Part shown: positions 5,870-59,117 of the stretch, piece after piece
Layout: each line of letters begins with the position of its first letter
How positions within the stretch are numbered: position 1 is the first letter of the stretch
From: a virus
Taxonomy: Duplodnaviria; Caudoviricetes
Strand: one strand, 5' to 3'
Virus record (IMG/VR): IMGVR_UViG_3300024999_000117
Span: 1 to 59,177 of that record
Length of the DNA: 59,177 nucleotides
The notes under the pieces: generated by a model
Seen by the model: the letters and a program-made list of their open reading frames with translations, nothing else
Database searches by the model: none
Told to the model about the DNA's origin: nothing
Program-made: the position numbers and the translations under genes

Positions 5870-6315
5870 CTCCTGAATATAACAACCATACTGGGAAACG
5901 GTGCACTATTTTTAGCACCACCAAACTTAAGTCGGCCTTTTAAAAATCTCAACTCTATCCCGGGTCGTGTCTGGTGTTTTTCACAATCCCAAATATACCT
6001 GTGAAAATACTTTGTGTCAGTTCTGGCAGGTAAGAGCATAACAACGGTAGTCCCAATCTTAGATTCAGTTACCGCTTTCTCTATCCACAGACCAATTTCT
6101 TTACCGTAAGGCGGGTTACACCAACAGGATCTAAAAAGCCACCAGTCCTGAGACAATCCGTCGTCCGAAAAGTTGAAATAGGTTTCACATTTAGCGTTGT
6201 TTGCCTCAGCGCAAACATCTACATCAAAGTTAAATTCAAAATTCAATTGGTCAAATAGCTCCTGTGGCGTCTCCCATTCTGAACTGTCCGAGGAAAACAA
6301 AGCTTTATCTACCAC
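5857..6315 (-). CDS. Phage N6-adenine DNA methyltransferase
   Basis: EWETP, DVCA, WCNPPY, LLPARTDT and RLKF..APFPS motifs. Confidence 0.88.
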   Translation of the reverse strand: MVDKALFSSDSSEWETPQELFDQLNFEFNFDVDVCAEANNAKCETYFNFSDDGLSQDWWLFRSCWCNPPYGKEIGLWIEKAVTESKIGTTVVMLLPARTDTKYFHRYIWDCEKHQTRPGIELRFLKGRLKFGGAKNSAPFPSMVVIFRRWPV

Positions 6316-6327
6316 AAATTCACCCCA

Positions 6328-7287
6328 CTATGACAGTAAATCATCTATTTCTTTTTTAATCTCCTCTACAGCAATATCTAAATTGCTAACCGATTGATTG
6401 AAATATGATTCTTTTAACTCAATACCGACAAATTTTCTACCTAATCCTAAGGTTGGATAACCCTCGCTACCGATACCAGCAAACGGGCTACAAACGATAT
6501 CTCCAGGGTTAGACCACAATTTAACTGCCCTCTCCACAACGTCAAGTTGCAACGGGCAAATATGCTTTTCGTCCTGGTCATCACGGGCCAGTTTGCAGTT
6601 CAGTACGTTCATTTGGTTTATATCAAACCATACCGCGATTGACGGAAAGTTCTTAATAAAATCCTTAGTAACGTTTATATCCTTATCGTCGAACCAAAGA
6701 GGAGAAGCGTAATTCTGCCAATCACTGAGTGGAAAAGTTTCCTCAGTATGAGTGACCGGCTCAGGGTCTACGTAGTCATCTGCCCATTTCCTAAAAAGCA
6801 ACAAGTAATCTGGCAGGCCTGTCCTACTATAGCAGCTATCCTTCCTGAGCTGTTTATACAGTAGGCCGTGGCTTTTTGTCCTCTGCATTTCTGTAACTGG
6901 ACTTTTCCAAATCAGCACTTCCGCATGGTAGGTAAAACCGTGCTTTTGATGTAACCGGATAATCTCACCCCGGAAGTCCCTAAGTCCTGCCTTGCCATCC
7001 CTACCCTTGTAGTTAACCAGTTGCTTACAGTGGACTGCTGCAAGCCGGCCAGGAACCAAAGTCCTGTATGTTTCGCCTACCAGATAATTATAGTGTTTAA
7101 AGAACTCTTCGTCGTTCTTGCTGTTACCCATGTCTGCAATACTACTACTGTAGATATATAAACTACTGAAAGGTGGTGAGTATAAATGTAAGTGGACACT
7201 ATCGCTTGGTAACCCTTTCAGCACTTCACACGAATCACCATTATACATAGTGTAGAAATCTGTTATTTTTTGGTCTAATACTTTCAC
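6328..7287 (-). CDS. N4/N6 (beta-class) DNA methyltransferase
   Basis: SPPF catalytic motif, HICPLQ, SPFAGIGSEG SAM motif, GIELK; GTG start at 7287 overlaps the upstream stop. Confidence 0.85.
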   Translation of the reverse strand: MKVLDQKITDFYTMYNGDSCEVLKGLPSDSVHLHLYSPPFSSLYIYSSSIADMGNSKNDEEFFKHYNYLVGETYRTLVPGRLAAVHCKQLVNYKGRDGKAGLRDFRGEIIRLHQKHGFTYHAEVLIWKSPVTEMQRTKSHGLLYKQLRKDSCYSRTGLPDYLLLFRKWADDYVDPEPVTHTEETFPLSDWQNYASPLWFDDKDINVTKDFIKNFPSIAVWFDINQMNVLNCKLARDDQDEKHICPLQLDVVERAVKLWSNPGDIVCSPFAGIGSEGYPTLGLGRKFVGIELKESYFNQSVSNLDIAVEEIKKEIDDLLS

Positions 7288-8654
7288 GTGACACCCCCAA
7301 TTAACCACTCGGGTAGTAGCATTTTTAAAGTTGGGCAATAGTCAAGTCTGTGTTTTTTGTCCTGCATAAGAGCGTGGTTTTTCAGCATCCCACCAACCAT
7401 ACCCTTTTTCATTTCCTCAAATAAAGTTTCTTTGGTCCGGACGATATCAAGGATCTGCTTTTCTGTTTCACCAATAACTATGTGGCAGTTAACCACTTTG
7501 TCCTGACCAAAACGCCAAAACCTTCTAGTCGCCTGGTAGAAAGATTCATAGCTAAAACTTAACCCGCAAAATACAACATTACGGCAGTTCTGAAAATTTA
7601 ACCCAAAACCGAATATTGAAGGTTTGCTAATTAACACTCTTATTTTCCCAAACCTGAAATCCTTAGCTGCCGTTTCTTTTTTAATCGTGCTGTCACTGCC
7701 GCGAACGTCTACAGCATCAGGAATGGTTTTTTTCAGAGCGTCGGCCTCATAGTTTGTATCACACCAGATTGTATATTGTTCATCTGTCCGACTAACTATC
7801 TCCGCGCACTTAGCTACCCTATCGAGTAAAGTTTGCCGCTTCTCTCTGTGGTAGGTAGTAGCATTTAGCTTTGTCAGTTGGGACGGTTCAGCTATAGGTA
7901 AAATCTCTTCGATAATATTGAGTGGAGGTAAAGTATATCCCTCGTCTGAATAGCCCAGGTCACTCGGCCTGGATATACTGACAGCCCAATCTGATACCCA
8001 GTTCCAAAAGTCGTCTACAGCATGGCCTTTGAGCTTGTACTTACCCATGTTCATTGTATCGTTTATAAACCATACCGCCAGGGCCTCATGGCTTTCCATC
8101 ACATTTAAGAAAGCCGCATGATTCAATATTTCCATGTGGTCATTAGGCGAAGGTGTGGCTGTACAAGCCAACTTAAACTCAGTATGTTTAAAGGCTCTAA
8201 TAATCTGTTGTTTAATTTTCCCGCTGTAGGATTTCAGTATTGACGATTCATCTAACACAACACCGGCAAACTGGTCAGGATCGAACTTATGCAACATCTC
8301 GTAATTCGCTATGTTGACACCTGGTCTTACATCTGCTTGTTCCCGGCATATAGTTGTCTCAATCCCAAACTTTACACCTTCGTCGTGGGTCTGCTGTGCT
8401 ACAGACAGTGGTGCTAGAACCAGTACATCACCAAAAGTATCTTTACACACTTGGTCTCCCCATTCAAGCTGCATAGCGGTTTTACCAAGTCCGCAATCAG
8501 CGAAAACAGCAGCCTTTCCTTTCCCAATTGCCCATTTCACAATATCCTTTTGAAAAGGGAATAGTTTAGGATTAATGTCTTCCGGATAAATATTAAAACC
8601 TTTGTTCTGTACCAATATCTTTTTGCTTTCAAGAAAAGCCTCGTAATCAGTCAA
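7284..8654 (-). CDS. SF2 helicase-like protein coupled to the methyltransferase
   Basis: DCGLGKT, LDESS, TATP, GFGLNFQ and RRFWRFGQ motifs. Confidence 0.85.
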   Translation of the reverse strand: MTDYEAFLESKKILVQNKGFNIYPEDINPKLFPFQKDIVKWAIGKGKAAVFADCGLGKTAMQLEWGDQVCKDTFGDVLVLAPLSVAQQTHDEGVKFGIETTICREQADVRPGVNIANYEMLHKFDPDQFAGVVLDESSILKSYSGKIKQQIIRAFKHTEFKLACTATPSPNDHMEILNHAAFLNVMESHEALAVWFINDTMNMGKYKLKGHAVDDFWNWVSDWAVSISRPSDLGYSDEGYTLPPLNIIEEILPIAEPSQLTKLNATTYHREKRQTLLDRVAKCAEIVSRTDEQYTIWCDTNYEADALKKTIPDAVDVRGSDSTIKKETAAKDFRFGKIRVLISKPSIFGFGLNFQNCRNVVFCGLSFSYESFYQATRRFWRFGQDKVVNCHIVIGETEKQILDIVRTKETLFEEMKKGMVGGMLKNHALMQDKKHRLDYCPTLKMLLPEWLIGGVT

Positions 8655-8669
8655 TCAACCATCACCTCA

Positions 8670-8999
8670 TTAAGACAACAGGTCATCTATATCATCAACC
8701 GGCTCAGCAGTTTCTTGTTTTAATTTCTTAACTACTTCCCTAAAATCCAGCTTCATAATGTCTTTTTTCATCTGAGCCAAGTAGTCAAGTATTTGCCTAA
8801 CACCTACCAACTCGGAAGTCTTCAGACCATGATTAGCTAAGAATTTAAACAGAGATTCGTCAAACATTGAATAGTAACCGGCAGTAGTCCAATGCTCTTC
8901 TCCGACGTTTTCACCCTCAGTTTTAATTTTTCGCTGTTCAATGATGTAGTTAAATCGGTCAGAGGTTATTTTGAAATTTTCACCTACAAACAGTTCCAT
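8670..8999 (-). CDS. Hypothetical phage protein
   Basis: ORF packed in operon; ends DIDDLLS like nearby genes. Confidence 0.65.
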   Translation of the reverse strand: MELFVGENFKITSDRFNYIIEQRKIKTEGENVGEEHWTTAGYYSMFDESLFKFLANHGLKTSELVGVRQILDYLAQMKKDIMKLDFREVVKKLKQETAEPVDDIDDLLS

Positions 9000-9443
9000 T
9001 TAATCATCTCCATATAATCCGATAATCGGTAAACTACCGGCCAAACTCCGGTAGCTATTAACGTCATGCAAAACCACATAACCCTTGCGCTCTTTATTCC
9101 AAGACTTCTGATAATCAATTCGCAAATCAAAACCATCAATTCCTGCCCTAACAGTTTGATGTTTAGCTAAACTTCTATACATTTGCTTCAACAATTCATA
9201 ATCAAGCAGTATCGAATCACCCAACACCTTCACGGTCACAGGCGATCCTTTTATGAGTAGTTCTTGTAAATGCTCCCGTTCACGTTCCAGTCGCCTAAGC
9301 TCCTTGGAACTGCTATCCGATTTACGAAGTTTAGTAATTTGCTTTGTCAGTTCCTTGCTTTGTTCTTTTATTGATTTGTTAGCTAATTCCTTGACTTGCT
9401 TAATTTTATCCCCAGCGGTGAGGGGTCTAACATACATGGTCAA
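9000..9443 (-). CDS. Hypothetical protein (coiled-coil N-terminus)
   Basis: ORF with GGAG RBS, abutting neighbours. Confidence 0.65.
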   Translation of the reverse strand: MTMYVRPLTAGDKIKQVKELANKSIKEQSKELTKQITKLRKSDSSSKELRRLEREREHLQELLIKGSPVTVKVLGDSILLDYELLKQMYRSLAKHQTVRAGIDGFDLRIDYQKSWNKERKGYVVLHDVNSYRSLAGSLPIIGLYGDD

Positions 9444-26513: not shown

Positions 26514-28121
26514 GTGTTACGGGGAGTAATTTACGCCAGGTATTCATCAGACAACCAAAGAGAAGAATCTATAGATGCCCAGGTGTATGAAATAAAAGAA
26601 TACGCCCGGGCAAATAATATTTCTATAGTAAAAATATATACTGATGAAGCCAGATCCGCTACAACCGATAATCGGCCTGGCTTTCTTAAAATGATAGACG
26701 ATGCAAATAAAGGCATATTTGAGGTTATACTAATCCATAAGTTGGACAGGTTTGCCCGGAATAGATATGACAGTGCCTTCTATAAAAGAGAATTAAAAAC
26801 GGCAGGGGTTAAGCTTATAAGCATCACCGAGAAACTTGACGATAGCCCGGAAAGTGTTATTTTGGAAAGTCTCTTAGAAGGAATGGCTGAATACTACTCC
26901 AAGAACCTGGCTAGGGAGGCCATGAAGGGGCTAAAAGAGAATGCCCGGAGCTGTAAGCATAATGGTGGTCGTCCACCCCTAGGATTGGACGTAGACCCTG
27001 CTACAAAGCAATATATTATTAGTGCTAATACTAAAGAAGTTGAAGCCGTTAAATTGATTTTTGAACTTTATGATCAAGGATTAGGTTATGGTACCCTGAT
27101 AAAGGAATTACATTTAAGGGGTTATACTACAAAGCTTGGTGGTAAATTTGCTAAAAATAGTCTATACGAACTTCTTCGTAATGAGAAATATATTGGGACA
27201 TATCTTTATAACAGAAGTGCCAGTAAATCTGACGGAAAAAGAAATAACCATAAATCAAAATCAGAGGAAGAAATTATAAAAGTTGAAAATGCCTTTCCGG
27301 CAATCATTGACAAAGACTTATTTGAGAGGGTGCAAGAAAAGATGGATACGCGTAAACATGCTAAAGCCAGGAACAAAGCAAAAGTTAATTATTTACTACA
27401 AGGCTTAGTTTATTGTAATGAATGCGAAGCTGCCATGGTAGGAAATAGCGGATCCTACAAAACAAAAACCGAAACCGTAAGATACTCTTATTATGAGTGC
27501 AATAAACGTAACCGACAAAAAGATTGTAGTAACCCACGCATTCGGAAAGAAATTCTTGAGAATATCGTATTGGACAAACTCTACCAAGAAATATTTGTTC
27601 CGGAGAGAGTTTCAATATTAGTACAAAAGATTAACGAATACAATCAAAAAACTACTACAGAAAGAAATGCAGAATTGGAATTACTTGAAACGGAGCTTAA
27701 AGAAACAAAAAAGCAAATTGATAACCTGGTGATGGCTGTAGCTAATGGAGCACCGTTTGCAAGTTTTTCAGATAAACTAAATGAACTGGAAAATAAAAAA
27801 GCCATGCTCGAAACTCGTTTAGAAGAGTCTCGAACTCTGGCTTTAAGATCATTGATTACTGAGGATATGATTATTAATTATTTAAACCAGCATCGTCAGG
27901 CCGTAGAAGACAAAGACATTGACGCTTGCAAGAAGTTCATAGGCAATTATGTAGAAAAAGTTGTTGTAAGCACTGATTTTATTGACATTCACTTCTACCT
28001 AAAATTTTTGGATATTGATGGTGGAGGCGGGGCGTACCGTTCAATATCCAAAATAAATAAAAAAGATATAAACGCAAAACCTGTAGGTGCTATTCCTACA
28101 GGTTTATTATTTCTTCAGTAA
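26514..28121 (+). CDS. Large serine recombinase (integrase)
   Basis: YARYSS catalytic serine, DRFARN, recombinase domain, CNEC...C...C Zn ribbon and coiled coil. Confidence 0.95.
   Translation: MLRGVIYARYSSDNQREESIDAQVYEIKEYARANNISIVKIYTDEARSATTDNRPGFLKMIDDANKGIFEVILIHKLDRFARNRYDSAFYKRELKTAGVKLISITEKLDDSPESVILESLLEGMAEYYSKNLAREAMKGLKENARSCKHNGGRPPLGLDVDPATKQYIISANTKEVEAVKLIFELYDQGLGYGTLIKELHLRGYTTKLGGKFAKNSLYELLRNEKYIGTYLYNRSASKSDGKRNNHKSKSEEEIIKVENAFPAIIDKDLFERVQEKMDTRKHAKARNKAKVNYLLQGLVYCNECEAAMVGNSGSYKTKTETVRYSYYECNKRNRQKDCSNPRIRKEILENIVLDKLYQEIFVPERVSILVQKINEYNQKTTTERNAELELLETELKETKKQIDNLVMAVANGAPFASFSDKLNELENKKAMLETRLEESRTLALRSLITEDMIINYLNQHRQAVEDKDIDACKKFIGNYVEKVVVSTDFIDIHFYLKFLDIDGGGGAYRSISKINKKDINAKPVGAIPTGLLFLQ
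28006..28053. other. Putative attP inside the integrase 3' end
   Basis: Perfect 13-bp inverted arms TTTTGGATATTGA / TCAATATCCAAAA around a 22-bp centre TGGTGGAGGCGGGGCGTACCGT. Confidence 0.65.
28077..28105. terminator. Bidirectional intrinsic terminator
   Basis: AAACCTGTAGG-7-CCTACAGGTTT between convergent genes. Confidence 0.7.
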
Positions 28122-45991: not shown

Positions 45992-46378
45992 ATGGTAAAA
46001 AAATATAAACCTGGGGAATTGGGCACTGAATCAAAACCAGTAAAAACAAAAGGCTGTTTGATTGCGTTTGGATTATTCGTACTCTTTGCAATATTGGTTT
46101 CATCATGTGTTAAACCGGAACCAAAAGACAGTGCACTAAGTGCCTATATAATCTCCCAGCAATTTGTTGAAGAAAAACTAAGATCACCATCTACTGCAAA
46201 ATTCCCGATGTTTCGAGAGGCACACGTCACTAATATAGATGAAGGTAAATACATTGTAATTGCTTACGTAGATGCTCAAAATCATTTTGGTGCCACGGTT
46301 CGGAGTAATTTTAGTGCTACAGTTAAGTACGCAGGAGACAACAACTGGAATTGCGAAGCATTAAATATGTGGGAGTAG
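45992..46378 (+). CDS. Membrane or lipoprotein moron, opposite strand
   Basis: Hydrophobic stretch ending VSSC; LRSPSTAKF..VDAQNHFGA; AGGAG RBS. Confidence 0.8.
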   Translation: MVKKYKPGELGTESKPVKTKGCLIAFGLFVLFAILVSSCVKPEPKDSALSAYIISQQFVEEKLRSPSTAKFPMFREAHVTNIDEGKYIVIAYVDAQNHFGATVRSNFSATVKYAGDNNWNCEALNMWE

Positions 46379-48569: not shown

Positions 48570-48985
48570 CTGCCTACCTCCTCAATAATTCTTATTGCCC
48601 CGTCTTCAATGATCCTTAGTGCCTCATTTCTTTTAGCATCAACGGCAGGACGAAAGAAAGGGTACGCCTTAACCTTGCCACGTTTCTGTCCTTTAATTAT
48701 AAGTCTGTGTCCGTATTCAACTAAATGCGCATGAGGGGATATTTTATAATCAACCGCTGATAAATATATAGTTTGATATCCTTTTGATATCCATTTTTTT
48801 GTTACAATACCCTTTTTAAGATTTCCAGTTACGCCTACCGGGGCGTTCTCCTTTGCCTGTTTAGTTATGATGTCGGCAGCTTTTTCGATAATATTTTCTA
48901 TTTTGCTAGGCGCAAATTTGCCGGCCAAAGCCTTAATTTCTTCATATAATTCCTTATCACCGCTGATACTTAAGATGTTTGCCAT
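48566..48985 (-). CDS. HK97 gp10-like neck protein
   Basis: APV..TGNLKK, HLVEYGH and PFFRPA motifs. Confidence 0.88.
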   Translation of the reverse strand: MANILSISGDKELYEEIKALAGKFAPSKIENIIEKAADIITKQAKENAPVGVTGNLKKGIVTKKWISKGYQTIYLSAVDYKISPHAHLVEYGHRLIIKGQKRGKVKAYPFFRPAVDAKRNEALRIIEDGAIRIIEEVGR

Positions 48986-49311
48986 CAGACCACTTCCTTA
49001 CACATGACATACAACTCCCGCCGCCTACCGTCCGGATCATTCGCTCCAATAACATCATAGGTCCTGCCATCGTAAACAACTTGCATTTTAGCGTTTACAC
49101 CGGCAAGGTAACGAATAACAAACAAATCCGTTGTCTCAGCATTAATCTTCTGCGCGGCAAAAAACTCCCTGGATGCTTGGTGCACCTTCTGAGCGTGAAC
49201 AGTCGCAAAAGTTGACCAAGTTTTTACAACCCCACCTAGACTGCCTTTAGAGGTGGTCAGTTGCTGGATCGTTATTCTGTGTCTGTATTTACCTGCTCCC
49301 ACAACTACCAC
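48985..49311 (-). CDS. Head closure (head-tail joining) protein
   Basis: RHRITIQ, W...A, IRY and YDVI pattern. Confidence 0.88.
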   Translation of the reverse strand: MVVVGAGKYRHRITIQQLTTSKGSLGGVVKTWSTFATVHAQKVHQASREFFAAQKINAETTDLFVIRYLAGVNAKMQVVYDGRTYDVIGANDPDGRRRELYVMCKEVV

Positions 49312-49314
49312 CCC

Positions 49315-50082
49315 CTAGACTAAAATAATTTTATCCTGGCCAAGCAGAGCCGAAACTGTAAACGGTATTTCTCCGCTGACGGTTCCGTCTACTATGGGTT
49401 CCCGTTTCTCGTTCCAGTGTGATACTAAAAACAATATCGCCTGCTTAATTTTCTGCGGTAAATCGTTAGTAATGTAATTTTTACTTGTCTGCGTCCCTGC
49501 CGTAGCGGTAAGTGTTAAAGCATCAACGCTGGCAACAGACGCGATAGTATACATAACGCCATCAATCTCGATAGCCTTACCTGCTGGCCAGTTGACATTA
49601 AATTCACTGCCGCTTACCCGCGTTACCGCCGTGCCGTTGGTGCTTACAACGCCCGTATAGGACGGAAAGCCTGCAGTAAAACGCACACAGACAGCATTTG
49701 CGGGGCGCAATGTCTCGGTAGGCCATAACTTACTGTATCCCAGCGAAACGCGCCCAGGTTCACTCACAACGTCAACGAAATAGTCAGTTGCTGGCATGGT
49801 ATGCTCAACATTTTCGGTGTCATAGTATTTCACCGATGCAACAGACTGCATAGGCGGTCTAGGGATACTGATATAGTCTCGACAAGGCCAATCATCCAGC
49901 CAGAGATCCCATGTCTGCGGCAGATAAGCCAACCGCTGACTAGCTTCACAATAACCTGTAGCGGCGGTAATTAAAGCAGAAATATAGGCTTCATTGTCCG
50001 TATCATCGATAACACAATGTTTTTTTGCCTCGGCAAGTGTTACTGGTTCTGTTGTCGCTGGTGTTATTAATTTTAAGGCAAT
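49315..50082 (-). CDS. Head-tail connector (gp6-like); frame extends 50 codons upstream of the track ORF to an ATT codon
   Basis: Upstream in-frame IALKLITPATTEPVTLAEAKKHC..; GAGGTG RBS 7 nt before ATT; C-terminal IKQAILFLVSHW.E.RE. Confidence 0.8.
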   Translation of the reverse strand: MALKLITPATTEPVTLAEAKKHCVIDDTDNEAYISALITAATGYCEASQRLAYLPQTWDLWLDDWPCRDYISIPRPPMQSVASVKYYDTENVEHTMPATDYFVDVVSEPGRVSLGYSKLWPTETLRPANAVCVRFTAGFPSYTGVVSTNGTAVTRVSGSEFNVNWPAGKAIEIDGVMYTIASVASVDALTLTATAGTQTSKNYITNDLPQKIKQAILFLVSHWNEKREPIVDGTVSGEIPFTVSALLGQDKIILV

Positions 50083-50097
50083 TTTAAGTCACCTCTA

Positions 50098-50940
50098 TTA
50101 TCTGAAATATTTATTATACTCCTGCCGCCGACGCTCCCCGGAGAGTTGGGCGTAAATCATCGTAGTGCTGATTCTGGCATGGCCCAGGTTCGACATAATA
50201 ACTTCCATAGGAGCCCCATTGTTCAACATCGTGGTAGCCATGCTGTGGCGCCATCTATGCGGGTAGACGTTAGTGGTTACCTCAGAATGCTGGGCAATAG
50301 CCTTGACCACCTCTCTGATTCTGGCTATAGACATTCTACGAATTGGCTTTCTGATAGTCACAAACAGGGCTTCGTGGTCATCGGTACGGGATTTTATATA
50401 CTTGTCCAGCCAAATTTTACACTTAATCGTAAAGTATACTTCCCTTTGCTTGTCACCTTTTCCGATGACTGAAGCCGAACGATCATCCCAGTTAATATCT
50501 CTGCGGTTTAATCCAAAAACCTCACCGATGCGGCAGCCGGTGCTAAAGAAAAATTCTGTGAGAGCTTTTTCCAGCAGTGAATCACAGCTATCCCTCAGCA
50601 GTTCGATTTCCTCATCATTGAGAAACTTAGGAATTCTTTTACCCTGCTTGGGCTCTCTTAGTTTGGCAGCTACGTTCCGATCAATAAATCCCTCTTCGTG
50701 TAAATAACGAAATAGCGATCTGATAAACTTTATCCTGTGGCCGATGCTGGCCGGCTTAAGGTGCTCTTGTTTGATGAGGTATTCCTTTAGGTTCACATAA
50801 GAAACATCTCCTATCTCTACGTCCCCAAGTTCCCTGATTAGTAAATTGGCCTGTATTTGGTAGGCTGTAAGCGTGTGGGGAGAATAACCTAAAAGCTTCT
50901 TATCAGCCTCGTAAAGTTGCCATGCCTTCGATAATAACAA
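50098..50940 (-). CDS. XerC/D-like tyrosine recombinase
   Basis: Intact catalytic set: GCRIGE (R), GKG.K (K), HRWRH (HxxR), LGH (H), TMIY (Y); N-terminal SAM-like domain starting MLLSKAW. Confidence 0.93.
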   Translation of the reverse strand: MLLSKAWQLYEADKKLLGYSPHTLTAYQIQANLLIRELGDVEIGDVSYVNLKEYLIKQEHLKPASIGHRIKFIRSLFRYLHEEGFIDRNVAAKLREPKQGKRIPKFLNDEEIELLRDSCDSLLEKALTEFFFSTGCRIGEVFGLNRRDINWDDRSASVIGKGDKQREVYFTIKCKIWLDKYIKSRTDDHEALFVTIRKPIRRMSIARIREVVKAIAQHSEVTTNVYPHRWRHSMATTMLNNGAPMEVIMSNLGHARISTTMIYAQLSGERRRQEYNKYFR

Positions 50941-50961
50941 GATCAACACCCCCTACAATGC

Positions 50962-51046
50962 GACACTTATTTAGTGTCTACATCATACCACATACACTAA
51001 TTTAGAGTCAATAATATTATATAGAAATTGACACTTATTTAGTGTA
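50962..51046. promoter_or_regulatory. Divergent promoter region with three palindromic operators
   Basis: GACACT-TATTT-AGTGTC (50962), TACACT-AATTT-AGAGTC (50993), GACACT-TATTT-AGTGTA (51030); minus-strand TTGACT-18-TATGAT at 50982-51011. Confidence 0.75.
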
Positions 51047-51061
51047 TAATGATTTAAGGAG

Positions 51062-51280
51062 GTGTATGCTGTGCAGCTTAAGTCAAATCTAAAAGAAATA
51101 ATTGATAGTCGCGGTCTGTCCATCAGGCAGTTAGCAAAAGATATTGACTACCGTTTTGAAACTGTTCGTCAACTCTATAACAACGACACAAAGCAATTTC
51201 CCCGTGATTTACTAGTAAAACTATGCGCTTACCTCGAAATTGATATTTCCGATTTATTAAAGCTAGACCGTCAGGATTAA
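51062..51280 (+). CDS. Cro/C1-type HTH regulator
   Basis: LSIRQLAKDIDYRFETVRQLYN...LCAYL; AGGAGG RBS. Confidence 0.88.
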   Translation: MYAVQLKSNLKEIIDSRGLSIRQLAKDIDYRFETVRQLYNNDTKQFPRDLLVKLCAYLEIDISDLLKLDRQD

Positions 51281-51290
51281 CCTGGCGGTC
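51266..51290. terminator. Hairpin at end of the HTH gene
   Basis: GACCGTCAGG-ATTAA-CCTGGCGGTC. Confidence 0.5.
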
Positions 51291-51320
51291 GTTTATGTCC
51301 CTTCCCGGCCCGTTCATCAG

Positions 51321-51346
51321 CCAACTAACGCACCTTCGTTAGTTGG
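51321..51346. other. Putative recombinase core site (perfect inverted repeat)
   Basis: CCAACTAACG-CACCTT-CGTTAGTTGG; no U-tract on either side. Confidence 0.55.
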
Positions 51347-51351
51347 GTAAA

Positions 51352-51579
51352 CTAGCAAGGAATTTTACCTTCACTTACAAGATAATCAAAAAACAATATC
51401 AATCCGTCACTTGATGTTGCTTCTTTCATTTCTGTTGCAATTGAGTATTGCCCAAAAACTGCATTTAAGAAGTCAATTGATATGCCACCAGCAATCCAAT
51501 TACCCTCGGCATCTTTTCCAGCATAAGGAAATTCAGCATTTCCAAAATCATCTACTATTAGGATAGTAGAAAAATCCAT
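51352..51579 (-). CDS. Small acidic hypothetical protein
   Basis: Start overlaps the upstream stop; ends 5 bp before the inverted repeat. Confidence 0.7.
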   Translation of the reverse strand: MDFSTILIVDDFGNAEFPYAGKDAEGNWIAGGISIDFLNAVFGQYSIATEMKEATSSDGLILFFDYLVSEGKIPC

Positions 51580-52160
51580 TATTTTATACCCCCCACAACA
51601 ACGTCATAAACATGGTCAACCGTATCACTGTTTTGTACTCTAGTATCAGCCCATAAAGCGGCCATATCTAAAGCAGAAACAGAGGCTATTTTAACACCTG
51701 TAGCAGTTGTACTTTTAATACTTGGATATTTTGACATACCTAGAGTGGCTTCATTATCTAGTTGATCTAGGTTAATAGTAAAATTGTGGTTCGTATCCGT
51801 GAGTGCATACGCATAAACTTTAGATAAATTAGTTGTACTCAGAAAGGACGTACTAAACATACTTAATGTTGCACCGGCGGTAACAGTTACGTTCCGTCTT
51901 ACCCCTAATATAACATTTCTACCAGTTAGTTTGCAAGGGACCGGGTTTAAGTCAGCAACATCAGCGTCACCGACCTGCATATTCACATCACCTATCATTC
52001 TCTTTACGTTCCAGTTCCCAGCACTGTTTAGAACATACAGCCGTCCAGTATCGGATTGAAAAAAGGTACTACCGGCAGGCACTTCTGTAACAGCTAGCGC
52101 CGCCATTTCTACGGCAGTACCGATAAATCTTTTTATTGTTGTTACTAAAGTAGCAGCCAT
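51579..52160 (-). CDS. Putative virion (head decoration) protein with apparently modular C-terminus
   Basis: Third gene after major capsid; internal AAACTAAC at codons K77-T79. Confidence 0.7.
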   Translation of the reverse strand: MAATLVTTIKRFIGTAVEMAALAVTEVPAGSTFFQSDTGRLYVLNSAGNWNVKRMIGDVNMQVGDADVADLNPVPCKLTGRNVILGVRRNVTVTAGATLSMFSTSFLSTTNLSKVYAYALTDTNHNFTINLDQLDNEATLGMSKYPSIKSTTATGVKIASVSALDMAALWADTRVQNSDTVDHVYDVVVGGIK

Positions 52161-52181
52161 CTTTTTCGGCCCCTCCTTTTA

Positions 52182-52898
52182 CTACGAATTAATCTGAATG
52201 CATTTGATCCAGTCAATAGTCATAGACTTAGCACCAGCGGAACCACTCAAAAATTGAATGGATGGGGTTAAATCCTCATCATCCGGCAGGTTGGTCATTG
52301 CCAATCTTGTCTGCAGGACACCATCGACATAACAATCGACGTTAGTTCCGTCAAAGCAAAATTCCAGGGTTACGTTAGTTGCAGCGGCCAAAACTCCGAC
52401 ATTTGCGGCAGTCGCTGTGCTGTTTTTATTTAGTTCAAACTGTATCGCAGTAGCTCCGTCAACCTTCTTGAAGCCGATAGAGTCTGTTACACCACCCAAA
52501 ATATCGGTATCGGTAATAGCCAGACCTATAAAAAAGTCAGATTGTGTTGCCTCAGAAGCTTGGAATTTAGTCCCAAAGTAAAGCGGTTTGCCGGATGCTA
52601 GTTTGAACGCCTCACCCAATAGCTGCAGGTTTGCACCGTCATTTTCATTTGCATCGGTGGTAATTACTACCGCTCCACCAGTCCAACTGGACACGAGAGC
52701 AACAGTTGTATCCCCGGCACCGGCTTCAACCAAAGTAGTTGTCCATCCAGCGGGACTGTCTGCGCCAGCAAAGGGAGTACCTACAAAGTCTTCAAGTAAT
52801 TTACATACTCCAGGACCGATAGCATCAAGCCATCTTTGCTTGTTTGCGCTGTCCACAAATACGAGATTCCCGTTTACGTACTTACTATTTACACCCAT
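52182..52898 (-). CDS. Putative head-associated beta-sandwich (lectin-like) protein
   Basis: Beta-rich; CYVDG and MTIDWI end; post-capsid position. Confidence 0.6.
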   Translation of the reverse strand: MGVNSKYVNGNLVFVDSANKQRWLDAIGPGVCKLLEDFVGTPFAGADSPAGWTTTLVEAGAGDTTVALVSSWTGGAVVITTDANENDGANLQLLGEAFKLASGKPLYFGTKFQASEATQSDFFIGLAITDTDILGGVTDSIGFKKVDGATAIQFELNKNSTATAANVGVLAAATNVTLEFCFDGTNVDCYVDGVLQTRLAMTNLPDDEDLTPSIQFLSGSAGAKSMTIDWIKCIQINS

Positions 52899-52955
52899 CG
52901 TTTTTACCTCCTTCGCTCAATTAAGAGCGCCCGGCTAATGCCGGGCAAATTTGGT

Positions 52956-53429
52956 TTATGCTATTGCTGTGGCCGATTCTGTACCGCCATAGCGGGCACC
53001 TGAGAGAATGGCCACGGCAGATCCATATGTTGCACCACCACATGCAGACCATTTTAGTTCCAAACAAGGAAAACCGTCAGAAAGTTGGGCAGCGTCAATT
53101 TCAATAACATAAGTAGTGTTGTCGTTAGCTGATACGTCGATACCTGTTGCCGCTACTGCAGCCGTGCGGGCACCTAAAGTATCACCAGCGGCGGTTGTTT
53201 CTGCGTAATAGCTAAAGTCGATGGCAGTATCATTGCTGGGAGTAAAGTTATCACACTCCTCAATCGTGATATTGCCAGCATCAGCGTTTGTGGCACCACA
53301 AGTTACAATAATTGTGGCGTGAGCATAGTTTTTCATAGAGAAAACATCCGAACTAACACCGGCAGAAACGTCCTGCGGCGGGAGTATATTTACTACGTGT
53401 CCTTGTTCTGCAATTGTGATTCCAGGCAT
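52956..53429 (-). CDS. Putative capsid decoration protein
   Basis: Directly after major capsid with strong RBS. Confidence 0.65.
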   Translation of the reverse strand: MPGITIAEQGHVVNILPPQDVSAGVSSDVFSMKNYAHATIIVTCGATNADAGNITIEECDNFTPSNDTAIDFSYYAETTAAGDTLGARTAAVAATGIDVSANDNTTYVIEIDAAQLSDGFPCLELKWSACGGATYGSAVAILSGARYGGTESATAIA

Positions 53430-53498
53430 TGATATTCCTCCTTAGACTTTTGAGTTTTTAGGCGTGTTTTTAGACAGGTTTTTATGCCTGCTTTTTAA

Positions 53499-54767
53499 TT
53501 AAGCGCGAGTATCTAAAGCAACAAAGGACGAAGTAGTATCGGATCCGTTAGCTGGTGTCAGCGGAGTTGATCTAACAGGTTGACCGTCTGCGCGATAGGT
53601 AAATCTGAAACAACTCTCGTCGTAAATAAATCTTACGTGAATGGAAATAGCGGTATTAATACCGCCTTTGTCGATAAACATATAGTCTCCGAAATCAGCT
53701 AAGATGATATCGCCCTTTGTACCAAGCGTTTTGCACTGCTCCATAGGATTAACAGGTAAACCAAGCAAGGTATTATAAGGTTTACCACTCAAACCCCCGG
53801 CAGGCATAAATATAGGCGCCCCACCAGTGCCTACCGCAAGGCTCATGGTGAATAATTGCGGTATCGTATCTTTGTTGATGTACCATTCAGCCATTTCACT
53901 GGCACAACGTGCATACATCTTGATGATATTTTCAGCTAATATGGTTTTAGCAGCTTGGCCATTCTCTTTAGCTATTGTTACAAGTGATCCGCTCTGTAAA
54001 ATACCGAGTGGTTTACCTACTCCGTTACCGTTTATCAGTGCATCGTCAATTAACCAACCAAACTCACTAGAAAAAGTTTTAGTTATAAAAGCCTCTAACT
54101 GCTGCGAATCTTGCAACATTTCATCGGTGGCGTAACAGAGACCGGTTAACTTACGAAGGTTAAGCTCAATCTGTCTAAATTTAGGTTTTGATCCGGTGAA
54201 TTGATCCGCTTCACCCTCCCAAAAAGCTTGTACACCACCAAAGCGTGATCCTGTGGCCCGAGAAGTTTCGTCAACACCGTTAATCTTAGTTCCGTTAGCA
54301 TTTGTGCTTAACGGTAATTTATTGCATTTAGACGCTAACTTACCCGTTTTATATGTTTCCTGCAACAAAGTGGCAATAAAATCCTGTTGCACTAAAAATC
54401 CACCATCACTCGGCACTGATTCATTCATACCAGAAGCGGCATTCTTTACCATTAGCCTGTTATCGAAACTACCACCGGGCCTTGCAGCTTCCGCTACTGC
54501 CCTTAGCTGTTCCCCAAAATTATTAAATTTCTCGTTACTGTTCACGACTTCAACGTGCACAGGTTTATTGACCGGGGTATTCATTTTGGTCTGCTGGTCA
54601 TTTAGCTTTTTAGCTGCCTCAGCAGATTGCTCCAGGTTACCAACCTCAGTCAATAACGCATTAACCCTTGACACTTCTTCTTCCGTCATCGGTCTGTTTT
54701 CGGCTATGGCCTTATTGTTAATAGCCTCTGCCTCATCCAATTTAGCTTTAATCATTGCTCCGTACAT
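53499..54767 (-). CDS. HK97-fold major capsid protein
   Basis: N-terminal delta coiled coil, DGGFLV, GNGVGKPLGIL and RADGQP. Confidence 0.93.
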   Translation of the reverse strand: MYGAMIKAKLDEAEAINNKAIAENRPMTEEEVSRVNALLTEVGNLEQSAEAAKKLNDQQTKMNTPVNKPVHVEVVNSNEKFNNFGEQLRAVAEAARPGGSFDNRLMVKNAASGMNESVPSDGGFLVQQDFIATLLQETYKTGKLASKCNKLPLSTNANGTKINGVDETSRATGSRFGGVQAFWEGEADQFTGSKPKFRQIELNLRKLTGLCYATDEMLQDSQQLEAFITKTFSSEFGWLIDDALINGNGVGKPLGILQSGSLVTIAKENGQAAKTILAENIIKMYARCASEMAEWYINKDTIPQLFTMSLAVGTGGAPIFMPAGGLSGKPYNTLLGLPVNPMEQCKTLGTKGDIILADFGDYMFIDKGGINTAISIHVRFIYDESCFRFTYRADGQPVRSTPLTPANGSDTTSSFVALDTRA

Positions 54768-55572
54768 TATTTTTCCTCCTCTTAATTTCTATCATTGCCT
54801 GATAGGTATTATTCATATCAACCGGCGCTTGTTTAGGCGGTTCCGGTTTGTTTTCGATTATACCGTCGGGGTCTTTTCTTTTTTCCATCTCTTTGAGCTT
54901 TTGAGCATAACCATCAAAGAGGCGATCCATGCTTTGCTTAACGCTGTTCTGTATGGCTAGTCCGCTAAACATGAACGAGTTTTCTACCGGATCGACTACT
55001 TCTGTATTATCGTACATAACACCATCAACGAAACCCTCTTTTACAGCTGTTTTTGCACTCATCCAAGTTTCGTTATCCATCATTTCTGCTATTTTCTTAC
55101 GTGATCTACCCGTTTTAGCCTGATATGCGTTTATGATCGACTCCTTAACCTCATCAAGTATGTCTGCCATGTGGCGCATATCTTTCGACTCGCCTCTGAC
55201 ACCGCTCCAAGGATTATGGATCATCATAATACCAACAGGGGAAATCTGTATTTCTTCACCGGCCATAGCGATAACAGAACCAGCGGACACGGCCTTACCG
55301 TCAATTTTTACGGTAACTTTGCCCTTATGCTCTTTTAGAGCGTTGTAGATGCCTGCTGCTGCTGTAGTGTCGCCACCCCAACTATCTATCCAGACGTTGA
55401 TATTCTTACCGCTATGCTCTGCCAGTGCTTGCCTAAATGCGTTTGGTGTCGCACACGGAATACCGAACCACTCATAGATCCAACCATCGTCGTCACTTAC
55501 AATCTCGCCTTCAATCCTGAGTTCTACTTCTTCCGGATTAGCTTCGTTTTTTACGAAATTCCAAAATGGCAT
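54748..55572 (-). CDS. ClpP-like prohead protease
   Basis: IDSWGGD, AVSAGSVIAMAG, MMIHNP and ETWMSA motifs. Confidence 0.93.
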   Translation of the reverse strand: MPFWNFVKNEANPEEVELRIEGEIVSDDDGWIYEWFGIPCATPNAFRQALAEHSGKNINVWIDSWGGDTTAAAGIYNALKEHKGKVTVKIDGKAVSAGSVIAMAGEEIQISPVGIMMIHNPWSGVRGESKDMRHMADILDEVKESIINAYQAKTGRSRKKIAEMMDNETWMSAKTAVKEGFVDGVMYDNTEVVDPVENSFMFSGLAIQNSVKQSMDRLFDGYAQKLKEMEKRKDPDGIIENKPEPPKQAPVDMNNTYQAMIEIKRRKNNVRSND

Positions 55573-55590: not shown

Positions 55591-56862
55591 CTACGCTGCT
55601 TTACTCTGTAGCATTTTGTAAATTTCCTCAGCCGTGGCCTTGATGTTATCCTGGACTTTACCAGCTTCAACCATATTAAGAGGCTCCAGGTATATATCGC
55701 CGTTAGCTATAGAGTTCATATTCTCTAGTTTTCTTATGTCATTAACTGACATCCAACCCCACTGTCTAGCTATGGAGTAAGCCTCTGCCCGGCTTTTTGC
55801 GTCGCCTCGAAGCAACGAATCAATCTTGAATTCCAGATAATAACCAGCCATGCGCTCTTGTTGCGTCAGGAGTTGCATGTTAATGTTTTCCTCCCAGCGT
55901 TTAAACCAGGGAAGCATTGTATACATTACAAATTCAAGGCTTTGCTGTTCAATATTGGAAAATGTTGCTTTGTCAAGATTCTGTATCAAGTGCAACGGCA
56001 CGCGGTAAATTCTTGCCACGTCTTCAATTTGGAACTTTTTATTGCCCAACAGCTCGGCATCAACCGGCTTGATAGTAAACGGCTTAAAGTCCATGCCCTC
56101 TTCGAGTATCATCGGCTTTCCGGTATTAGCCAAACCCGTATAGTTTTTAGTTAAGTCTGCTTTTAATCTCTCAAAAGCGATATCGCTTAACGAATTAGGA
56201 TGCGTAAAAGCACCACTTGCGTTAGCTCCGTTGTTAAAAAAACTATTCCCGAACTGTTCGTAGGACAATCCCAAGCATATAGCTGATCCTGCATACTCAA
56301 TTGGGGTCATACCGATAACACCGTCAAAACTTAAACCAGGTATATGAAATACCTGCGACCTGTCTAACTCTCTTAACTTAGTCCCATCCCTAATCTTATA
56401 CACCAGTCGTCCAGTCTCTTTGTTACGGTCTATCTGTACCATAGACCACGGATAGGGGTATAGTCCAACTAATTGGCCATACCGATTAACCAGACGCTCA
56501 CAGACAGCGTTGCCACCAGTGTTCAAGGCTACCATGCAGGCTTCTTTAAAATTAAACGGCGACATTTCATCGTTCGGAGCATTGTGCAAAATATCGTATA
56601 CCGCTAAATCGTTCTTGGATTCTCGGTCACCATCCGTTTTTTTGCGATACAGCATAATCGGCATTGATGCAAGTGTCTCGGATAACACCCGCACACAAGC
56701 AAAAACAGCCGTGTATTTCATGGCTGTTTGAGTGTTGATGTTCGTATAACCGGGTGTGCCGGGTACATCGTCGCCCCGGAGGAATGACCTTACATATTCA
56801 TCAAACCAGTTGTTTTTAAAAATTATACGGCTGGCCATACCTAATCTTTGCCTTAACTTCAA
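55591..56862 (-). CDS. HK97-family portal protein
   Basis: VFACVRVLSET, ATFSNIEQQ and LLRGDAKSR motifs. Confidence 0.95.
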   Translation of the reverse strand: MKLRQRLGMASRIIFKNNWFDEYVRSFLRGDDVPGTPGYTNINTQTAMKYTAVFACVRVLSETLASMPIMLYRKKTDGDRESKNDLAVYDILHNAPNDEMSPFNFKEACMVALNTGGNAVCERLVNRYGQLVGLYPYPWSMVQIDRNKETGRLVYKIRDGTKLRELDRSQVFHIPGLSFDGVIGMTPIEYAGSAICLGLSYEQFGNSFFNNGANASGAFTHPNSLSDIAFERLKADLTKNYTGLANTGKPMILEEGMDFKPFTIKPVDAELLGNKKFQIEDVARIYRVPLHLIQNLDKATFSNIEQQSLEFVMYTMLPWFKRWEENINMQLLTQQERMAGYYLEFKIDSLLRGDAKSRAEAYSIARQWGWMSVNDIRKLENMNSIANGDIYLEPLNMVEAGKVQDNIKATAEEIYKMLQSKAA

Positions 56863-56874
56863 ATACTCACCTCC

Positions 56875-58605
56875 TCACAGCGACCTCATTCCGCGTTTTT
56901 CATAAACCGAAGATTTATCCTCATTTACCATTGCCCGAGCATGGGCATTAATCAGTGACGCAACCGGGTCAATTTTATCGGAAGCTTTCGATTTATCTAA
57001 CATTATGTTTTCACTTGGGCCTTTTCTAACTACTGCGTTTCCTATGGCCCAAGTCAAAACCGGATTATTGTTGTGGAATATTTTTTTGTTATATGCCTTA
57101 GCCCTAAAATCCTTTGTTGCTACACTTAGTCCCGTAAAAGACTGCGGTATGTCTACCGGGATAAATCCAAGTAGATCAAGTTCATGTGACAACCATGTAG
57201 CAAGCGCCCGGTCAAAACATACTTCACCTTTGGGCCATTTGTATTCTTCAAAAGTTTTCACCAAATAATCTAAAATAAAGTGATAATCGACTTCAGCCTC
57301 AGGCGTAACCGTTAACCATCCCTGATCTTTCCATAAGTCAAACCTAATCTTACCCTCCCTTACCCTTGCTTCGTAAGTTTCCTCGGGCATAAATGAGTGC
57401 GATAAAACAGCATAACATCCATCTGAAAGAGGGATATCAAAGGATAAGCTTGTTAGGTCAAGTGTTGATGCAAGGTCAATTCCAGGATAAACTTTCATAC
57501 CCGTAACATCCGGGAAAGGTCTGCCGTCATTTGTACTACATTGTTTCCACTTTGCCATATTCATGTAGCCAGCAGCACGTTGGTTAATCCAAATATTAAA
57601 TGTCTTAGTCAGGACATCACGCATTTTCTCAGGCTTGTCCTGGGCCTCCATAATGTCGTATTCAATAGACTCTTTACCTACGACGGTATTGCCGATGATA
57701 GGGTTTGACTTAAGCCTGGCGGCTTCACTGTTTATATCGTCTATCATCTTGCCGTTTTCGTCAGTTTCGGCCTCACATATCGCAACGTAGTAGCGGTCGT
57801 TTTCAACGGGATTATCAGGGTCAAGTATCTTACTAACGTAGTCATATTCAACACGGTAGCAAGGGTTGTTTAATTCAAAACCGGCAGTTGATATGATTGA
57901 CAATAGAGGCTGCAGTCTGGTTTTCATACCCGATGAAGCTAAGTCGTAATATTCCGTTGTTTCGTGCTGGTGATATTCGTCCAGAACAACAAACTGCGGA
58001 TTGGTGCCATCACCATTCTTTTTATCTTCTTTGCTTAGCCGGGCAAAAAAAGAACCGCTTTTCTTATGGCGGATAACGGTTGCTTGTAATTCTTGGTCAA
58101 ACTTGGTTACGAATTTATCTTTAAGAAGTTCTGAATTTTGATAAAGCCAGCTAGCTTCACCCCAAACAAACCTTGTATCAGATTTTTTAGTAGCTGCTAC
58201 ATACGCCTCTGCCATCGATTCGCCAAAGGCTGATATTTCATACAGAGCTTGAATACCTTTATCCTGTGACTTTGCGTTTTTCCTTGCCAACTGCTCATAA
58301 GAGCGACGAAACCTTCTTAAGCCAGTTTCGCGGTGTACCCATCCATAAATATTGCCGTAAACGAATAGCTCATATAATGCTGGTTCTTTTTGCTGTCCCG
58401 CAAGTGGCCCTTTGCTATGCTTAAATAGCCGCATCCAGTTAAAATATCTTTTTGCTTTTTCTTCATCGAGTACCCAAGGGAATTCATCTATGCCCTCACG
58501 CTTTATGTCTCTTAGAAAGCGCATGGCAGACCACTTATATTTTTGACAGTAAGCTATATTGTTATTGATTACTTCATCACAGTATTGCTTAAGGTCGTAC
58601 TTCAT
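56875..58605 (-). CDS. Terminase large subunit
   Basis: ARKNAKS Walker A, VLDEYH, ISTAG, GIDLA..DL and KIDP motifs. Confidence 0.95.
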   Translation of the reverse strand: MKYDLKQYCDEVINNNIAYCQKYKWSAMRFLRDIKREGIDEFPWVLDEEKAKRYFNWMRLFKHSKGPLAGQQKEPALYELFVYGNIYGWVHRETGLRRFRRSYEQLARKNAKSQDKGIQALYEISAFGESMAEAYVAATKKSDTRFVWGEASWLYQNSELLKDKFVTKFDQELQATVIRHKKSGSFFARLSKEDKKNGDGTNPQFVVLDEYHQHETTEYYDLASSGMKTRLQPLLSIISTAGFELNNPCYRVEYDYVSKILDPDNPVENDRYYVAICEAETDENGKMIDDINSEAARLKSNPIIGNTVVGKESIEYDIMEAQDKPEKMRDVLTKTFNIWINQRAAGYMNMAKWKQCSTNDGRPFPDVTGMKVYPGIDLASTLDLTSLSFDIPLSDGCYAVLSHSFMPEETYEARVREGKIRFDLWKDQGWLTVTPEAEVDYHFILDYLVKTFEEYKWPKGEVCFDRALATWLSHELDLLGFIPVDIPQSFTGLSVATKDFRAKAYNKKIFHNNNPVLTWAIGNAVVRKGPSENIMLDKSKASDKIDPVASLINAHARAMVNEDKSSVYEKRGMRSL

Positions 58606-59117
58606 ACATTACCAAATCCTTGATCAGCCAAAGGATCGGCAGGTTTTTTATTTTCTTGTTTTGGTACATTCTTAATCCTCGCCGTGGGGTTTAGGAAAAG
58701 TCTGTCCTCCAACTTCACTAGCAGGTCCATCTTTTTTTCAACGCGCTTATCGATTTCAAGTATTCTGTCAGCTAAAGATAAGCGCTCTACGGGATCTCTG
58801 CTCTGTGCGTATTGACTGGTTATATCATTTCTCATATCAACCATTCTTGAATACTCAGAATGTAGTAGGCAGTAACGATTAATCACGTTCTCGTCAAGTC
58901 CCTCAACATACTCAATGGAGCGATAGAGTTTTTTTAACTTCTTAAACATAGCCAGGGCAACCATGTCATTTTCAACCTGTGGGCTTGGCTTATAGTTCTT
59001 TTGTCCGGAGTTAAGTTTTGTTTCCTGTTTTTGGCGAGCGGCAATTTCTTCTTTGGTCAGGTGCCGCTTATTGCCGTTTAGTAGGTGCAACTGTACCGGT
59101 TTAGCTGGTCTGGCCAA
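58602..59117 (-). CDS. Terminase small subunit (P27 family)
   Basis: MARPAKP..L..GNK..LTKEEI..R; LFLNPTAR. Confidence 0.9.
   Translation of the reverse strand: MARPAKPVQLHLLNGNKRHLTKEEIAARQKQETKLNSGQKNYKPSPQVENDMVALAMFKKLKKLYRSIEYVEGLDENVINRYCLLHSEYSRMVDMRNDITSQYAQSRDPVERLSLADRILEIDKRVEKKMDLLVKLEDRLFLNPTARIKNVPKQENKKPADPLADQGFGNV

Follow-up and report, generated by a model that had tools for sequence, protein, structure and literature searches.

The DNA analysed here, called the window throughout, is a whole virus record of 59,177 nucleotides (nt) (IMG/VR IMGVR_UViG_3300024999_000117; linear, CheckV 100%), and belongs to a phage that a serine integrase gene (26514-28121) and an S24 repressor show to be temperate. 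In its late region lies a small gene (51579-52160) for a fibre-like protein of 193 amino acids (aa), and our proposal is that the end of this protein is replaceable. The segment 51347-51911, comprising the distal 110 codons of what would be a small, trimeric-fibre-like virion protein together with a 75-aa open reading frame (ORF), would be a gene cassette bounded by two cognate sites of the neighbouring Xer-like recombinase: site A, which lies in frame and supplies the LTGR codons, and site B, which is palindromic. Cassettes of this kind would be traded by the recombinase among related genomes, whether two phages co-infect a cell or one meets a prophage, and a constant N-terminal anchor would in this way acquire a new distal domain, probably a ligand-binding one, along with its accessory ORF(s). 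Site-specific cassette exchange of the fibre tip is the best reading of this region, and we consider it moderately probable.

Site B is a perfect inverted repeat (IR), whose arms can also be written AACTAACG-AAGGTG-CGTTAGTT. Its core, AACTAAC, has a copy in the IR at 51338-51344 and recurs directly 587 nt away, at 51925-51931, where GTTAGTT on the plus strand corresponds to AAACTAACTGGTAG on the minus strand and to codons K77-L78-T79-G80 of the fibre-like gene. The original prediction had noted this repeat and its distant core, and had placed both correctly. Taken by themselves, the window's copies are no more than chance would provide: AACTAAC is found 15 times against a mean of 11.2 in shuffled sequence (20 of 100 shuffles reach 15), and CCAACTAACG with at most one mismatch 5 times against 3.28 expected. 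The core owes its significance to other loci alone. The exact pattern ACTAACGAANNTGCGTTAG is found in 32 viral stretches, mostly directly 3' of a small ORF's stop codon; one variant of the IR carries symmetric changes (AGCTAACG...CGTTAGCT). When each distinct IR with at least 1.5 kb of upstream sequence was taken as a starting point and the 13-mer AACTAACTGGTAG was sought upstream with at most two mismatches, 20 of 21 contexts yielded exactly one copy, 0.5-2.2 kb upstream, always in direct orientation and read in frame as (Q/K)LTG(S/R). By our own calculation about 0.03 copies per locus would be expected by chance; the sole exception looks like a chance match to the IR. The two sites have an 8-nt core, (C/A)AACTAAC, in common.

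The internal site had been credited in the original prediction with a single good arm. Comparison of loci shows instead a conserved site of 13-20 nt, maintained at the nucleotide level with its choice of codons fixed, which may be read as a 7-6-7 site. When the peptide x-L-[TS]-G-[SRG]-x was sought without regard to codons, the junction of the fibre-like genes proved to be written (C/A)AACTAACTGGTAG(T/A) despite unrelated flanking peptides, and the nucleotides (C/A)AA CTA AC(T/G) GGT AG(T/A) are present in 25 units, again amid unrelated peptides. Leu is encoded by CTA in 23/25 of these, Gly by GGT in 25/25, Ser by AGT in 21/21, Arg by AGA in 4/4 and Thr by ACT in 20/23, counts that merely describe the 25 units because these were chosen by a nucleotide pattern (the unbiased figure is the 20 of 21 contexts given above). 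In the corresponding control, from nine loci, all 20 conserved columns of the N-terminal domain use 2-5 synonymous codons. (A further property of the site: the invariant CTAACTGGTAG, at 51919-51929, holds stop codons, TAA and TAG, in both other frames, so that a cassette joined out of frame would terminate at once.)

Homology between phages starts and stops at these sites: the same cassette is found behind unrelated N-parts, and related flanks enclose unrelated cassettes. This emerges from an all-against-all blastn comparison of 24 units, each with 600-nt flanks, in which positions are relative to site A. Between loci L029 and L052 identity is 78% over the whole cassette through the IR (-2 to +1768), with non-homologous flanks; for L003, the window's closest relative (portal 91% and 238-aa protein 97% identical), the matches to L052, L049, L029 and L048 begin at -12 to +1. 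L045 and L052 have both flanks in common (91% and 82%) around cassettes of 681 and 1736 nt; L035 and L052 are homologous in just two stretches, -50 to +11 and IR-7 onward; in 13 pairs the downstream homology starts 1-12 nt before the IR. At the protein level the units sort into 8 clusters by N-part and 12 by C-part, variously combined: one C cluster stands behind two N clusters, and the window's own N cluster (the window, L002 and L003) bears three C clusters. Every one of the 24 units stays in frame for 52-255 codons after site A. A check proposed in advance, that homologues of the N-part should break off at the junction, came out as anticipated: some 50-80 aa are kept and then diverge completely, with cassette homology beginning at -12 to +1 and ending at the IR. 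Of the forecast that cassette-borne domains are exchangeable, it is the cassette-bounded mosaicism that has been observed; recombination is deduced from it, its product not having been seen. The cassette had also seemed, by eye, richer in AT, and a real but modest step does exist: the GC fraction is 0.365-0.38 over 51400-51900, 0.41-0.455 over 51800-52100 and 0.44-0.51 over 52200-53300. Neither the C-part nor the 75-aa ORF has a match in Pfam, PHROGs or NCBIfam; a complex prediction for the two scored 0.00, which counts neither for nor against their binding.

What kind of protein would acquire these ends? The fold matches and the position of the gene suggest that the 193-aa product is a small fibre-like protein with a constant anchor, presumably present in the virion. 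A word-indexed search returned 7 relatives, with the first ~50-80 residues in common and the remainder unalignable; all 8 aligned sequences have L78 and G80. Residues 1-82, searched exhaustively, gave 85 representative clusters at E<=1e-3, most of them covering only residues 1-49/54, and the stretch 54-80 is found as a repeat in longer proteins. The AlphaFold model is confident only across residues 10-52 (pLDDT 96-98 for residues 11-50). Weak Foldseek matches (E 0.035-0.1) are to the trimerisation domains of collagens XV/XVIII and to the N-termini of phage tailspikes and fibres; with this model, a weak one, no match reached E<=0.001, and Atlas scores (<=0.84) provide leads only. In the phage collection a search with the 193-aa protein alone yielded no confirmed locus and an alignment query 13, in all of which the gene lies between those for the major capsid protein and the head-tail adaptor.

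(A side observation on this gene: in L002, at 6001-9200, the homologous fibre gene, 155 aa, has site A and no IR within 5 mismatches. It is followed by a 446-aa ORF and then by a 363-aa reverse transcriptase (RVT_1, 52.5 bits) with IGNYTSQ and YVDD motifs and, by eye, the look of a diversity-generating retroelement; a second kind of diversifier may thus occupy the same slot. In the window, a Pfam scan of 48985-55572 matched none of 10 proteins to a reverse transcriptase family.)

The presumptive agent of exchange had been described as a second, catalytically intact tyrosine recombinase, and this is upheld: besides the Pfam match listed in Table 1, residues R137, K161, H228, R231, H254 and Y263 are invariant in the alignment of its family. 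The search found 926 homologues. Those at 13 viral loci are 74-91% identical where the gene is whole (in L025-L027 it is split, cut or a remnant); among 737 matching deposited phage records there is no relative above 34.6% identity. The enzyme shares the Xer fold family, its nearest solved structures being XerD (1a0p) and XerA (4a8e/5hxy), but it falls below every equivalog cut-off: the best NCBIfam models are XerA (186.5 against a cut-off of 220), XerC (185.5 against 335) and XerD (168.4 against 330). Xer models outscore those for integron integrases, of which TIGR02249 gives 73.4 bits against 265, with its best stretch confined to residues 209-269, and NF011946 gives 43 against 435; with these models so far below their cut-offs, identity with an integron integrase was rejected. 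(Its C-terminal motif YAQLSGE, at 50125-50145 on the minus strand, is written CAACTCTCCGGGGAG and loosely resembles the CAACTAACTGGTAG of site A, probably by chance.)

Recombinase and site B are physically linked. Motif and enzyme had been expected to co-occur, and in 10 of the 32 viral stretches a recombinase homologue does follow the IR after 0.1-1.3 kb, although in one of these only its last 21 codons are left; since some stretches end soon after the IR, 10 of 32 is a lower bound. The homology of window DNA to the 13 recombinase loci opens at the IR (51351/51344), closes at the stop codon of the recombinase gene (50098/50099) and goes no further, and because it ends at these limits we take the IR, a helix-turn-helix (HTH) gene, the control region and the recombinase gene to form one unit, or module, of ~1.25 kb. 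The divergent HTH gene, another element of the original prediction that is substantiated, as is the separate serine integrase, has homologues adjoining the recombinase at 5 of the 13 loci; variants without it (L028, L040, L025) have 70-100 nt between IR and recombinase, and the window, with the HTH gene between, has 372. Three operator-like repeats (50962-50980, 50993-51011, 51030-51048; repeat family D4, inverted pair I1) overlap promoter-like sites on the plus (51022-51050) and minus (51011-50982) strands, each matched at 10/12 positions, and the HTH gene has its own terminator-like hairpin at 51266-51290. From this layout the HTH protein would probably repress the divergent recombinase promoter through the three repeats, the intergenic segment acting as a putative control region. 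The IR is not called a terminator because it lacks a T run, and Rfam has no match in 49000-53500.

(Two decayed modules may be put on record. In L027, at 640-1600, the IR survives with the final 59 nt of the recombinase gene, and a 259-aa ORF, a weak MobC-like match, stands in place of the HTH gene and most of the recombinase gene; L003, at 7900-7996, keeps only the IR, the last 13 nt of the recombinase gene and a terminator before the adaptor's ribosome-binding site. A second recombinase site at the module's right end was sought and rejected: there is no consistent site at right ends or in the L003 and L027 scars.)

A palindrome of the 10-6-10 type is the usual form of a simple tyrosine-recombinase site, and Xer/dif and Cre/loxP likewise pair an armless recombinase (XerD and XerA being nearest to the one in hand) with a palindromic site that has a short asymmetric spacer. 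Might the module, then, be a self-contained recombinase-and-site system of that sort, devoted to multimer resolution or to a second route of integration, and unconcerned with the fibre gene? An Xer-like enzyme, a single site B in the window and a temperate phage would all suit such a role. It leaves site A, its direct pairing with B at 20 of 21 loci, and the cassette-bounded homology unexplained; moreover, the module is found in late operons beside fibre-like genes at three map positions, before the adaptor gene (window, L022/L023), Hc1 (L015) or the tail chaperone (L016-L019, L024, L026). We give this explanation very little credence.

The closest published system is the Rin shufflon of Bifidobacterium and Eggerthella lenta prophages. 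Its sites are laid out in the same geometry, but it operates by inverting segments of a single genome and has 2-3 further segments and sites, in inverted orientation (PMC6109161, PMC8778435). The resemblance, a comparison of descriptions and not of sequences, extends to: 1) a phage-encoded, XerD-like, armless tyrosine recombinase separate from the phage integrase; 2) its location beside a receptor-binding or fibre gene whose C-terminal segments vary and whose N-part is constant; and 3) short sites, one at the in-gene junction and another just past the 3' end in direct orientation (PMC6109161). Tyrosine recombinase, variable C-segments and junction site, by which a shufflon is recognised, are thus all present here. 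Unlike Rin, the phages considered here have one cassette per unit, two kinds of site and variation between genomes, and the site sequences differ (rix is TTCCCTAACCC, against AACTAACTGGTAG). The silent inverted segments are absent, and no inverted copy of site A (13-mer with at most one mismatch, within 2.6 kb) was found in any of 27 IR contexts. A shufflon of the R64 Rci or Rin type was rejected on the latter ground and because all 24 units are in frame, in agreement with the original prediction that the mechanism would be another one. A simpler device, an inversion switch (tip off, the protein ending ...QLTHLR-stop) or a Rin-type shufflon reduced to one segment, deserves separate mention, since the arms of site B are perfectly symmetric and a palindrome that carries the core in both orientations makes a flip of the cassette conceivable. 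Yet it is always the "on" orientation that is seen, in 24 of 24 units, and among the contig joints listed for one sequencing run (X4, discussed below) none changes strand. We regard inversion, in either form, as improbable. The tail-fibre segments of Mu, P1 and p15B, as described in the same source, also combine a constant N-terminal fibre part with alternative C-parts that travel with a small downstream ORF; they are inverted by the serine invertases Gin, Cin and Min at inverted sites (PMC6109161).

How would exchange proceed? The likeliest route would be a pair of crossovers, each between sites of one kind (A with A', B with B'), after the manner of engineered recombinase-mediated cassette exchange, where two heterotypic sites flank a segment, because A and B have the left arm in common but different, separately conserved spacers. 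(We know of no natural Xer or Cre system that swaps gene segments.) Excision of the cassette as a 587-bp circle is less likely. Deleting it in silico does give the short allele ending ...KLTKVR-stop that had been foreseen, because the IR in the L-T frame reads (Q/K)LTK(V/M)R-stop. Neither that empty-site allele nor the 587-bp excision that had also been foreseen was found, among 28 IR contexts for the former and the contigs of run X4 for the latter.

Contigs, rather than raw reads, were examined in four runs of one groundwater study that contain the stretch and from which it may come. In run X4 the contigs (Logan) break exactly at 51321-51350 and 51919-51948. Joins are found of 51351 to 51911 (depth 127) and of 51344 to 51919 (depth 5.5), in contigs that match both flanks and skip 559 or 574 nt; one contig joins 50093 to 51323 (depth 187), a 1229-nt skip of the whole HTH-recombinase unit. 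A loose end at 51344 carries an L003-type cassette end. Because the joints are annotated "between: not known", have a short side of 21-22 letters and derive from contigs, they are taken to reflect co-existing variants or replaced cassettes and not excision; a product of recombination is not seen in the run X4 contigs.

That last point is one of several that weigh against site-specific exchange, to be added to the selection of units behind the codon counts. The classical reaction would not tolerate spacers that differ as those of A and B do. The window's C-part is a singleton among the 24 units, its own cassette standing behind no other constant part; and in none of the 28 IR contexts does a long ORF run on into the IR, as it should at an empty site. 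The recombinase is missing from all 13 loci with a homologue of the 193-aa protein, as is the HTH gene. G002, a complete phage of 63,296 bases with terminal repeats, has two A-B units (L044, L056) 8.6 kb apart and no recombinase homologue anywhere in its record, from which it follows that the sites can persist without a cis-encoded enzyme. Where the window is compared with L003, upstream homology gives out 55-103 nt short of site A, and the same is true of three other pairs; ordinary recombination therefore also acts in the constant part.

Could ordinary recombination, then, account for everything? Site A would be a structural motif of the fibre and site B a hairpin ending a recombinase/HTH insert, both lending microhomology to general recombination, with the module an unrelated selfish insert. 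LTGS/LSGS is indeed a motif at the protein level in family members without an IR (L009, L011), several blocks of upstream homology stop 46-238 nt short of site A, the module has been gained and lost (as the L003 and L027 remnants attest), and the region between capsid and adaptor genes differs in content and size, the distance from the N-part of the fibre gene to the adaptor varying from 0.5 to 3.9 kb across the 13 related loci that have no recombinase. But codons are frozen only at site A, whereas neighbouring conserved P, S, A and N residues, like the N-domain, vary synonymously; sites A and B have an 8-nt core in common; the core is also found around bacterial homologues of the recombinase, in intergenic settings that have nothing to do with fibres; and 13-26 nt is short for efficient general recombination. 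Ordinary mosaicism as the whole explanation strikes us as unlikely, if still worth keeping in mind, and cassette exchange by the recombinase remains the reading that we prefer.

Table 1. Coordinates of the proposed exchange unit and of the late genes around it, in window positions
Feature	Position	Strand	Remarks
Xer-like armless tyrosine recombinase, 283 aa	50098..50949	-	Pfam Phage_integrase, 1.5e-32
Divergent control region (putative)	50950..51061	.	three 19-nt operator-like repeats and two promoter-like sites
Xre/Cro-type HTH gene	51062..51280	+	Pfam HTH_26, 1.1e-11; divergent
Site B, perfect inverted repeat	51321..51346		CCAACTAACG-AAGGTG-CGTTAGTTGG, minus-strand reading; outer end of recombinase module
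Cassette (proposed)	51347..51911	-	codons 84-193 of fibre-like gene and 75-aa ORF (51352-51579)
Site A	51912..51931	-	AACTAAC-TGGTAG-AAATGTT, encodes (K)-L-T-G-R-N-V in frame
Constant part of 193-aa fibre-like gene	51932..52160	-	codons 1-76; compact N-terminal domain is residues 10-52
ORFs of 157, 238 and 193 aa, and 75-aa ORF	after capsid gene	-	families of the first three unknown
HK97-type capsid protein	53499-54767	-	late operon
ClpP-type protease	54748-55572	-	late operon
Portal	55591-56862	-	late operon
Two terminase ORFs	56875-59117	-	small/large naming by position and size only

The setting is a late operon on the minus strand (Table 1). The ORFs that follow the capsid gene are succeeded by the HTH gene, on the plus strand, then by the recombinase gene, the gene of a gp6-like head-tail adaptor, Hc1 and the genes of the tail. 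A search of deposited phage DNA with window positions 48900-54800 gave no match. Two asides concern neighbours. The adaptor gene (49315-50076, minus strand) reaches upstream of its listed TTG start at 49932, Pfam Phage_connect_1 spanning residues 13-90 of the longer frame; this has no in-frame ATG, GTG or TTG after the upstream stop, and the likeliest start is an ATT 8 bases downstream of GAGGTG, which is kept in L003 (ATA and TTA codons are also present). A 128-aa ORF (45992-46378, plus strand) lies on the opposite strand within the tail module; it has no Pfam match, its hydrophobic N-terminus followed by Cys is lipoprotein-like by eye, and it may be a moron.

Integrons are the other obvious comparison, and one that the original prediction had drawn from the likeness of the core to the ends of attC sites. 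Those sites are long imperfect palindromes ending in RYYYAAC / GTTRRRY, and the core AACTAAC/GTTAGTT departs from that consensus at one position; the likeness is no more than a resemblance, and the recombinase fails the integron-integrase models. Common to both are a tyrosine recombinase with an adjoining site and exchangeable cassettes whose bounding sites share a 7-nt core like GTTRRRY, and bacterial relatives of the phage enzyme show co-oriented arrays of many sites, some of them without a recombinase. In contrast, the sites here are simple and 20-26 nt long, not folded attC sites of 57-141 nt, and the phage cassette is an in-frame 3' gene segment, one per unit, where an integron cassette would be an entire promoterless gene. 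It is only around the bacterial homologues that arrays are seen.

At least 583 relatives of the recombinase, 53-58% identical, are found in genomes of Bacillales, several of them alone on contigs of 1-4 kb. In 80 such bacterial loci CTAACCTGC is present in 51 copies on the recombinase strand, against ~2.7 expected, and its complement CTAACGGG(T/G) in 102 copies on the other strand. In Paenibacillus-type loci CTAAC(G/T)GGCAG is found 2-6 times per 10 kb, always co-oriented and intergenic, and in two 20-kb bacterial stretches the copies separate 1-6 ORFs. The strict palindrome lies upstream of the recombinase at just 3 of 71 loci; a looser CTAAC-type site lies 90-135 nt upstream at 13 of 71, against 13 of 1246 control windows. 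One 7.1-Mb Paenibacillaceae chromosome (G006; loci L145, L146, L132) has 64 copies of CTAACKGGCAG against 8 of a control pattern, in a few intergenic clusters of up to ~20, co-oriented within clusters; two recombinase homologues lie inside clusters. Strand use differs between the two halves of the chromosome: copies at 0.38-2.12 Mb are minus-strand and those at 3.7-6.7 Mb plus-strand, except for one at 6.60 Mb. Each copy lies within a longer imperfect palindrome (...CGGCAGCCTCGTTGAG|CTAACGGGCAG GTTAG...). They could be an integron-like array or a REP-like element.

By analogy, site A would resemble the usual distal site of this family and site B its recombinase-proximal site. One can carry the analogy further, onto more speculative ground, and think of the phage unit as a form, carried by viruses and joined in frame, of a gene-cassette system of Bacillales that is as yet undescribed: Xer-like recombinases and simple sites of ~20 nt in place of IntI and attC, a recombinase-proximal site and many co-oriented distal sites separating one to few genes, and arrays that lack a recombinase. 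The phages would have placed the distal site inside a fibre gene for trading receptor-binding tips, and phages without the recombinase could borrow that of the host. We offer this tentatively, as an idea with some chance of being right. A search of the literature, largely excluding subscription journals, found no description of these sites or of fibre cassette exchange at direct sites; the site strings turn up only in unrelated papers.

Phages vary the recognition of their hosts by known routes: inversion (Gin, Cin, Min, Rin), mutagenic retroelements and general recombination. If the reading favoured here is true, there would be a fourth, in which a recombinase dedicated to the task moves tip cassettes, in frame, from one genome to another. 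It would explain the sharp module boundaries in fibre genes, and would amount to a natural cut-and-swap tool for the retargeting of phages. Some bacterial groups are, to our knowledge, without classical integrons; the site arrays of Bacillales bear on whether such groups have an analogous cassette system.

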